From: Escherichia coli
GTDB taxonomy: Bacteria; Pseudomonadota; Gammaproteobacteria; Enterobacterales; Enterobacteriaceae
Assembly: GCF_009931435.1 (NCBI RefSeq)
Contig: NZ_CP043415.1
DNA length: 64,000 nt
Direction: 5' to 3' (one strand)
Both the position numbers and the translations under genes were made by a program. How positions within the stretch are numbered: position 1 is the first letter of the stretch; each line of letters starts with the position of its first letter. The notes beneath the pieces were generated by a model that worked only from the letters and a program-made list of their open reading frames with translations, had not been told where the DNA came from and ran no database searches. This document shows, in pieces, positions 43,531-43,586 of this stretch.

Positions 43531-43586
43531 AGTAGCAGTAGCAGTAGCAGTAGCAGTAGCAGTAGCAGTAGCAGTAGCAGTAGCAG
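43531..43586. repeat. Hexanucleotide microsatellite (AGTAGC)x9
   Basis: Nine perfect tandem copies; purine-rich non-repetitive sequence at the same place in copies 1 and 3. Confidence 0.9.

Follow-up and report, generated by a model that had tools for sequence, protein, structure and literature searches.

The 64-kb stretch of Escherichia coli DNA analyzed here (the window) is from an IncF conjugative plasmid and carries a perfect hexanucleotide tandem array, (CAGTAG)x9.5, at the edge of an Frpo2-type element in the leading region. Judged by its sequence and surroundings, this locus is the known E. coli O157 MLVA marker VNTR-37 (O157-37), rediscovered in an IncF plasmid other than pO157. Very probably, the array is a hypervariable VNTR of hexanucleotide units in the IncF leading region that codes for nothing, changes by slippage, and is neutral or nearly so. 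Having served for some two decades in the typing of E. coli O157, the repeat carries little weight as a discovery; mild novelty lies only in the breadth of its distribution across IncF plasmids outside pO157 and in where exactly it sits at the Frpo2 edge.

The array and its plasmid setting

Direct reading of the sequence and Tandem Repeats Finder (TRF) both delimit the microsatellite at 43530-43586, with (CAGTAG)x9.5 being equivalent to (AGTAGC)x9. TRF reports period 6, 9.5 copies, 100% matches, and 0 indels, at a score of 114 that is the second highest in the window. In the AGTAGC register, nine exact units occupy 43531-43584 and are followed by AG, in agreement with the nine hexamers described in the first-pass annotation; the pattern across the whole tract is cag(tagcag)n. 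At the base composition of the window, about 1.6e-26 perfect 57-nt tracts of period 6 would be expected by chance per 64 kb. Interruptions are likewise absent from related arrays, with none in the 110 metagenome and plasmid loci in which the array could be delimited. A separate perfect tandem repeat of 9 nt, CGGCTGTTG x6.9 at 7852-7913 (TRF score 124), encodes a (QQP)6 run near the C terminus of TraD (ORF 7573-9771, minus strand), and this coding repeat is probably length-variable among F-like plasmids.

The assignment of the window to an IncF plasmid draws on Rfam matches to FinP and the traJ 5' UTR (32448-32556) and to sok (36558-36734), and on its best PLSDB matches, which are IncFIA/FIB/FIC plasmids typed MOBF/MPF_F. 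The sequence GCGTGGGGTGTGGTGCTTT, which we take to be the F nic site, occurs once. Because it lies on the + strand, the + strand would be the one transferred to the recipient, an orientation consistent with the position of FinP/traJ and with the leading-region genes, all of which are on the minus strand. DNA would thus enter the recipient from about 33.4 kb toward higher coordinates and, because the + strand is transferred, the array would arrive as (CAGTAG)n, directly behind Frpo2 and some 10.2 kb from nic.

A repeat of about 640 nt is present in three copies, at 35515-36141 (copy 1), 42885-43525 (copy 2), and 46220-46669 (copy 3). Copy 2 lies upstream of ssb, the same place as the Frpo2 described in PMC9849209; in F, Frpo2 is a single-strand promoter that drives ssb, yfjA, yfjB, psiB, and psiA (PMC9849209; also PMC12672017). 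Folded as + strand single-stranded DNA, the main hairpin of copy 2 reaches −102.6 kcal/mol (z −8.83). The array starts four bases past the end of copy 2 and is followed by (AAC)3(ATC)2, about 50 nt of unique sequence, a GC-rich hairpin, and the stop codon of a methyltransferase gene, which, as transcription runs, precedes the array and is itself preceded by a DUF3560 gene (44359-45720). The distance from array to hairpin is 69 nt. The first-pass annotation had placed the array between the repeat and a methyltransferase terminator. Its position directly after copy 2 and before the hairpin stands, but the term terminator is unproven, as the hairpin, although a stable stem-loop, lacks a T-run and was not called by the terminator scan. 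The features are collected in Table 1.

Table 1. Coordinates of the array and of features in its surroundings, numbered from the first letter of the window.
Feature	Position	Strand	Basis or remark
F-type oriT nic-site sequence GCGTGGGGTGTGGTGCTTT	33359..33377	+	Exact match, single occurrence, 0.02 expected
Plasmid ssb gene, first gene downstream of Frpo2	42324..42863	-	ORF contains MAVRGINKV...; 540-nt ssb in near-identical plasmid L001
Repeat copy 2, Frpo2-type single-strand promoter element	42885..43525	+	Three-copy alignment; main hairpin ~42910-43228
Ala-Thr-frame ORF, hypothetical protein	43336..43614	-	Overlaps poly-Leu ORF; no Pfam; runs into structured Frpo2 domain
Poly-Leu-frame ORF, hypothetical protein in many records	43506..43748	-	PGAP calls; no Pfam; runs through GC hairpin
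Purine tract GGAAAAAGAAGAA, end of Frpo-type repeat	43517..43529		Similar form in all three copies (alignment)
Perfect (CAGTAG)x9.5 microsatellite	43530..43586		TRF; orthologous to MLVA locus VNTR-37 / O157-37
Minor triplet repeats, (AAC)3 then (ATC)2	43588..43602		Length-polymorphic
GC-rich hairpin downstream of methyltransferase gene	43656..43699		−21.4 kcal/mol, z −4.75
Class I SAM-dependent methyltransferase gene, ydcA-like	43748..44311	-	ORF; Pfam MTS, Methyltransf_25; homologous plasmid annotation

The leading region holds several other elements. An Rfam match to AS-pc01 (RF02875, the antisense RNA of pHK01; 98.9 bits) is found at 45997-46096 on the + strand, between the DUF3560 gene and copy 3, and a group II intron domain (RF00029) at 51711-51787 on the minus strand, where the corresponding end of the leading region in plasmid L001 carries an ltrA reverse transcriptase/maturase gene. 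An IS21-family element at 38916-40717, whose + strand encodes a 340-aa IstA-like rve integrase and a 260-aa IstB, interrupts a ParB/RepB/Spo0J-like gene (40727-42022), of which 431 codons remain open compared to 652 in the near-identical L001. psiB is absent from its usual place beside this gene.

Copy-number variation and the flanks of related elements

The array was compared in 18 plasmids: sixteen taken as a spread, rather than a random sample, of the PLSDB matches listed for 43411-43706, together with L001 (the best match to the window) and the plasmid of EDL933. Full-length matches among those listed range from 245 to 302 nt. The window and these plasmids carry 1, 2, 3, 4, 4, 5, 5, 6, 6, 7, 7, 7, 7, 8, 8, 8, 9, 10, and 10 units, all perfect, such that every copy number from 1 to 10 is represented. 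Plasmids typed as conjugative account for 1, 2, 3, 4, 6, 7, 8, and 10 units; one of the two 5-unit plasmids is typed mobilizable and the other non-mobilizable, and the 9-unit allele is that of the untyped window.

A metagenome search with a 20-mer spanning the left junction returned at least 120 stretches, and three further IncF contigs, mis-binned ones, came from representative genomes scanned in the same way. Kept from the matches listed were 95 metagenome and MAG loci in an IncF context, with 1 to 12 units and a median of 4 (1 unit in 11 loci, 2 in 17, 3 in 12, 4 in 16, 5 in 14, 6 in 8, 7 in 9, 8 in 4, 9 in 3, and 12 in 1), a sample in which short-read assembly may under-represent long arrays. 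All recovered IncF loci have at least 1.5 copies, as the search pattern demanded, which leaves zero-copy alleles invisible. The combined range is 1 to 12 copies in 113 loci, and allele lengths are spread broadly and continuously, favoring neither a particular length nor a helical phase. Further matches of the representative-genome scan, and 25 of the metagenome matches, were discarded as chance occurrences of a low-complexity 20-mer in Clostridia, Legionella, and others. The three added contigs (L142, L143, and L148) carry the IncF VNTR-37 locus in MAGs labeled Oscillospiraceae, Oscillibacter, and Collinsella, and are most likely mis-binned enterobacterial plasmid DNA.

Loci were also grouped by flank haplotype, defined as identity over 120 nt on both sides (240 nt). 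The commonest haplotype is associated with 1, 1, 2, 4, 4, 5, 5, 5, 6, 6, 7, 7, 7, and 8 units, and three others span 1-8, 2-10, and 2-7 units. Because identical flanks carry such widely differing copy numbers, the array must change far faster than its flanks accumulate substitutions. Whole 6-nt units would be gained and lost by slipped-strand mispairing during replication, at a pace exceeding that of point substitution in the flanks. The first-pass annotation had proposed slippage at this tract and suggested comparing copy number across related plasmids; that comparison bears the proposal out, with 1-10 copies in plasmids, 1-12 in the listed metagenome loci, and 1-8 on identical flanks, and invariance among isolates was not seen. 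The adjacent triplets vary as well, with 1-5 copies of AAC and 1-2 of CAT/ATC across loci. The forms of this tract are AACAACAACAT (73 loci), AACAACAA (28), AACAT (2), and a 4-copy and a 5-copy form found once each. Length changes across these tracts, whether of 6-nt, AAC, or CAT units, always come in multiples of three nucleotides, as coding sequence would need; this is uninformative about coding since hexamer and triplet motifs produce such steps automatically.

The equivalent flanks of the two other Frpo-type copies behave differently from one another. Both had been described in the first-pass annotation as non-repetitive and purine-rich. This holds for copy 1, where all 10 loci compared share one flank sequence, but copy 3 is followed by an imperfect (GAA/GAG)n tract (TRF AAG x6.7 at 46784-46803), and tracts of this type range from 43 to 73 nt among 13 related loci, always in steps of 3, with the longest in classical F, beside its Frpo2. 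The copy 3 flank as a whole (46740-46851) combines this tract with a 14-nt duplication. Because the copy 1 flank is invariant and the copy 3 flank varies, variability follows repetitiveness and not adjacency to an Frpo element; hypervariability of all Frpo flanks by virtue of their position is ruled out by copy 1.

Classical F (L018) lacks the array together with the class I methyltransferase and DUF3560 genes, and instead has a copy-3-type flank with (GAAGAG)n. Its Frpo2 is a hybrid of the ssb-side part of copy 2 and the distal flank of copy 3 of the window, a pattern consistent with deletion by recombination between two Frpo-type repeats. A one-unit allele reads GAAGAA-CAGTAGCAG-GAACAAC, and the paralogous flanks read GAAGAACAATAACAAG at copy 3 and GAAGAACAGTAACAGG in classical F. 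Given these sequences it is plausible that the array grew from a CAGTARCAG proto-repeat, which appears to be still visible beside copy 3 and in classical F.

Possible roles of the array

The array itself has no predicted structure. Together with 30-50 nt of flank on each side (141 nt), it folds to −5.3 kcal/mol on the + strand (z −0.63) and to −4.8 kcal/mol on the minus strand (z −0.33). With 0, 1, 3, 5, 9, or 12 units, the minimum free energy of 42860-43760 falls within the narrow span of −225.6 to −226.9 kcal/mol, and the only contacts inside the array in these folds are zero-energy two-pair contacts. A structural role in single-stranded DNA was rejected on these grounds: in folds of the transferred strand with 0-20 units, the energy shifted by no more than 1.3 kcal/mol for n up to 12. 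A scan of 42300-44400 for sigma-70-like promoters found none, the terminator scan called nothing at or beside the array, and Rfam has no match at the array, its matches within 30000-52000 being FinP, the traJ 5' UTR, sok, AS-pc01, and the group II intron, all elsewhere. Folding, promoter and terminator scans, Rfam, and Pfam searches of the ORFs thus gave no sign of function. The array occupies the spacer between the hairpin after the ydcA-like methyltransferase gene and the Frpo2 promoter that drives ssb and the genes downstream, and would take no part in the Frpo2 fold, provide neither a promoter nor a terminator signal, and encode no credible protein. The absence of these signals suggests that its length changes are neutral or nearly so.

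A regulatory alternative follows from the earlier suggestion that slippage could vary the spacing between the single-strand promoter and upstream sequence. Array length does alter the distance from Frpo2 to the hairpin and methyltransferase gene, by up to 66 nt among alleles of 1 to 12 copies, and the Frpo2-type element ends right beside the array, which is on its upstream side as transcription runs. Spacer length could in principle modulate early ssb-psiB expression or read-through from the operon upstream and generate reversible, heritable variants. Plasmid adaptation is documented to act on the leading region (PMC10104558); the mutations described there are other leading-region mutations. 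An effect on the promoter is, however, unsupported by the folding models, in which the array is unpaired and the energy essentially constant for n = 0-12. On the transferred strand, some 300 nt and a second structured domain separate the array from the 3' base of the main promoter hairpin, and no double-strand promoter or canonical terminator is nearby; allele sizes are broad and continuous, and classical F does without the array. Deletion of Frpo2 left the conjugation efficiency of F unchanged (PMC9849209), and any fine-tuning effect should therefore be small. We regard such tuning as highly improbable. The location of the array lends itself to a clean test of whether upstream spacing matters for promoters of this kind, and the evidence so far suggests that it does not. 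A second alternative, to which we give slightly less credence still, considers the purine-rich tracts after all three Frpo-type copies, either as structure-free spacers, with no self-complementarity, that would isolate the promoter hairpin or load SSB, or as sites at which polymerase pausing at the very stable Frpo hairpin, while the complementary strand is made, would promote slippage and so account for microsatellites arising there. These tracts are unstructured and 67-83% purine, compared to 49% for the leading region overall, such that base composition 3' of Frpo-type copies might be constrained. Repeats of variable length occupy two of the three positions: (CAGTAG)n follows copy 2, and (GAA/GAG)n follows copy 3 as well as the Frpo2 of classical F. 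The two short-unit TRF arrays of the leading region (6-nt and 3-nt) both fall at these flanks, and the 6-nt array has the top score of that region. Against this, the equivalent flank of copy 1 is non-repetitive and invariant in all 10 loci, so that variability tracks repeat purity; one-unit arrays persist, with no minimum spacer length evident; and O157-37, carried by the non-conjugative pO157, mutates at a rate usual for a VNTR of that size.

A third alternative is that the array encodes a variable homopolymeric stretch of a small protein. Five of the six frames of the hexamer are free of stops, and ORFs are annotated across it in nearly all records: the very hydrophobic poly-Leu frame and the Ala-Thr frame on the minus strand (Table 1) and, in pO157-type records, a plus-strand poly-Ser ORF, L7083 or a related call, named pilus protein or hypothetical (207-587 in the pO157-like plasmid pTA142, L016; 1184-1639 in the EDL933 plasmid, L156). 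VNTR-37 has itself been placed inside ORF L7083 (PMC3321953), every observed indel keeps the reading frame, and the start of the poly-Leu ORF overlaps the methyltransferase stop codon in the window (TGATG). These ORFs are, however, mutually exclusive, occupying two strands and three frames in different records, and they traverse the GC hairpin or the structured Frpo2 domain. Searched against Pfam, neither minus-strand ORF belonged to any family, nor did the pilus protein encoded on the plus strand of pTA142; the only matches were sub-threshold, low-complexity ones to the poly-Ser ORF. Start codons are not kept either, the internal ATG being AGA or ATC in other haplotypes and the annotated starts differing among records. 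Open frames would be expected in any case, since the pyrimidine-rich strand rarely has stops and a 6-nt unit always stays in frame. We rejected the coding reading on the lack of any Pfam family and of conserved starts, and give it the least credence of the three; the ORFs are probably artifacts of stop-poor, low-complexity sequence that have spread through RefSeq, and the three incompatible annotations (hypothetical, pilus, or similar) deserve distrust. A further ORF of 68 aa at 42889-43095 (minus strand), annotated as hypothetical in related plasmids, lies wholly inside the main Frpo2 hairpin and is probably not a gene.

The boldest form of these proposals would make (CAGTAG)n a heritable, reversible tuner of the leading region, acting on Frpo2 firing or on ssb-psiB read-through, or else a source of a variable hydrophobic micropeptide, with the purine tracts as a selected feature of single-strand promoters. 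We hold this to be as improbable as the coding reading. A non-coding VNTR that changes by slippage with little or no consequence remains the strongly favored reading.

Relation to VNTR-37 and other known systems

The O157 MLVA literature lists two loci on pO157. One of these is VNTR-37, for which PMC3321953 prints the primers and gives, in its Table 1, a 6-bp unit, a position on pO157 inside ORF L7083, and 3-17 repeats; there, 202 strains yielded 11 alleles, with a diversity index of 0.82. O157-37 belongs to the PulseNet MLVA scheme, for which PMC3321953 and PMC3768571 cite Keys et al. 2005 and Hyytia-Trees et al. 2006. When nine O157 strains were serially passaged in parallel, two changes arose at O157-37, one single-unit insertion and one multi-unit deletion, which corresponds to 4.3e-5 per generation in those strains (PMC3777172).

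The locus in the window shares the 6-bp unit, the forward primer site, the gene context, and the copy-number variation of this marker. The forward primer, GCCGCCCCTTACATTACGCGGACATTC, has a site with 2 mismatches on the minus strand at 43648-43674, overlapping the GC-rich hairpin. For the reverse primer, GCAGGAGAACAACAAAACAGACAGTAATCAGAGCAGC, no site with nine or fewer mismatches was found beside the array in the window. Both primers match the flanks of the array in pTA142 with 0 mismatches, and the reverse primer has 3 mismatches in plasmid L017. Frpo2 in the window has a 3' domain of the copy 1 type and not of the pO157 type, which accounts for the missing reverse site, and the standard VNTR-37 assay would consequently give a null allele. 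This appears to be a property of the assay and not of the orthology, as the array, the right flank, and the gene order are common to both. On the EDL933 pO157, the order is ssb, a small ORF, the array (7 copies), and the methyltransferase gene, identical to that in the window. The VNTR-36 primers match nowhere in the window.

The marker is not specific to pO157. Among complete E. coli genomes in RefSeq, the locus was matched in 2708 of 5426, about half, and 3274 of the 3300 matching places are on plasmids. PLSDB matches, among those listed, are mainly from Escherichia, Klebsiella, Salmonella, and Shigella, and include Citrobacter plasmids too. Carried by IncF plasmids of Klebsiella, Salmonella, and Shigella as well as E. 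coli, the array could serve as a fast-evolving marker with which to track these plasmids.

Among known systems, the array is related in position to the Frpo/ssi class 1 single-strand DNA promoters found on IncF and IncI1 plasmids (Masai & Arai 1997; PMC9849209; PMC12672017), in that it abuts an Frpo2-type element on the same transferred strand. It differs from them in lying outside the conserved three-copy homology, where it is unpaired and is predicted neither to pair with the element nor to stabilize it, the fold energy being independent of n. Contingency-locus repeats of Haemophilus, Neisseria, Campylobacter, and other genera either belong to an ORF that their unit throws out of frame or are positioned between promoter hexamers or immediately before them. 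The array resembles these as a perfect, rapidly slipping short tandem repeat beside a regulatory element, but its 6-nt unit preserves the frame, its surroundings (42300-44400) hold no sigma-70-like promoter, its ORFs are inconsistent and without a family, and no on/off target is evident. Other short-unit O157 MLVA VNTRs (such as O157-3, O157-10, and Vhec7/VNTR-36) likewise have units of 6-7 nt and stepwise indels of whole units, and short-unit O157 VNTRs mutate at 1e-5 to 1e-3 per generation (PMC3777172); most of these loci are chromosomal, whereas this array is plasmid-borne and lies in a conjugative leading region. The closest correspondence is with VNTR-37/O157-37 itself. There, the window differs in not being pO157 and in the copy-1-type 3' domain of its Frpo2, with its missing reverse primer site, and agrees in the repeat unit, in the right flank with the hairpin that holds the forward primer site, in the succession of ssb, Frpo-type element, array, hairpin, and methyltransferase gene, and in variation by whole units.
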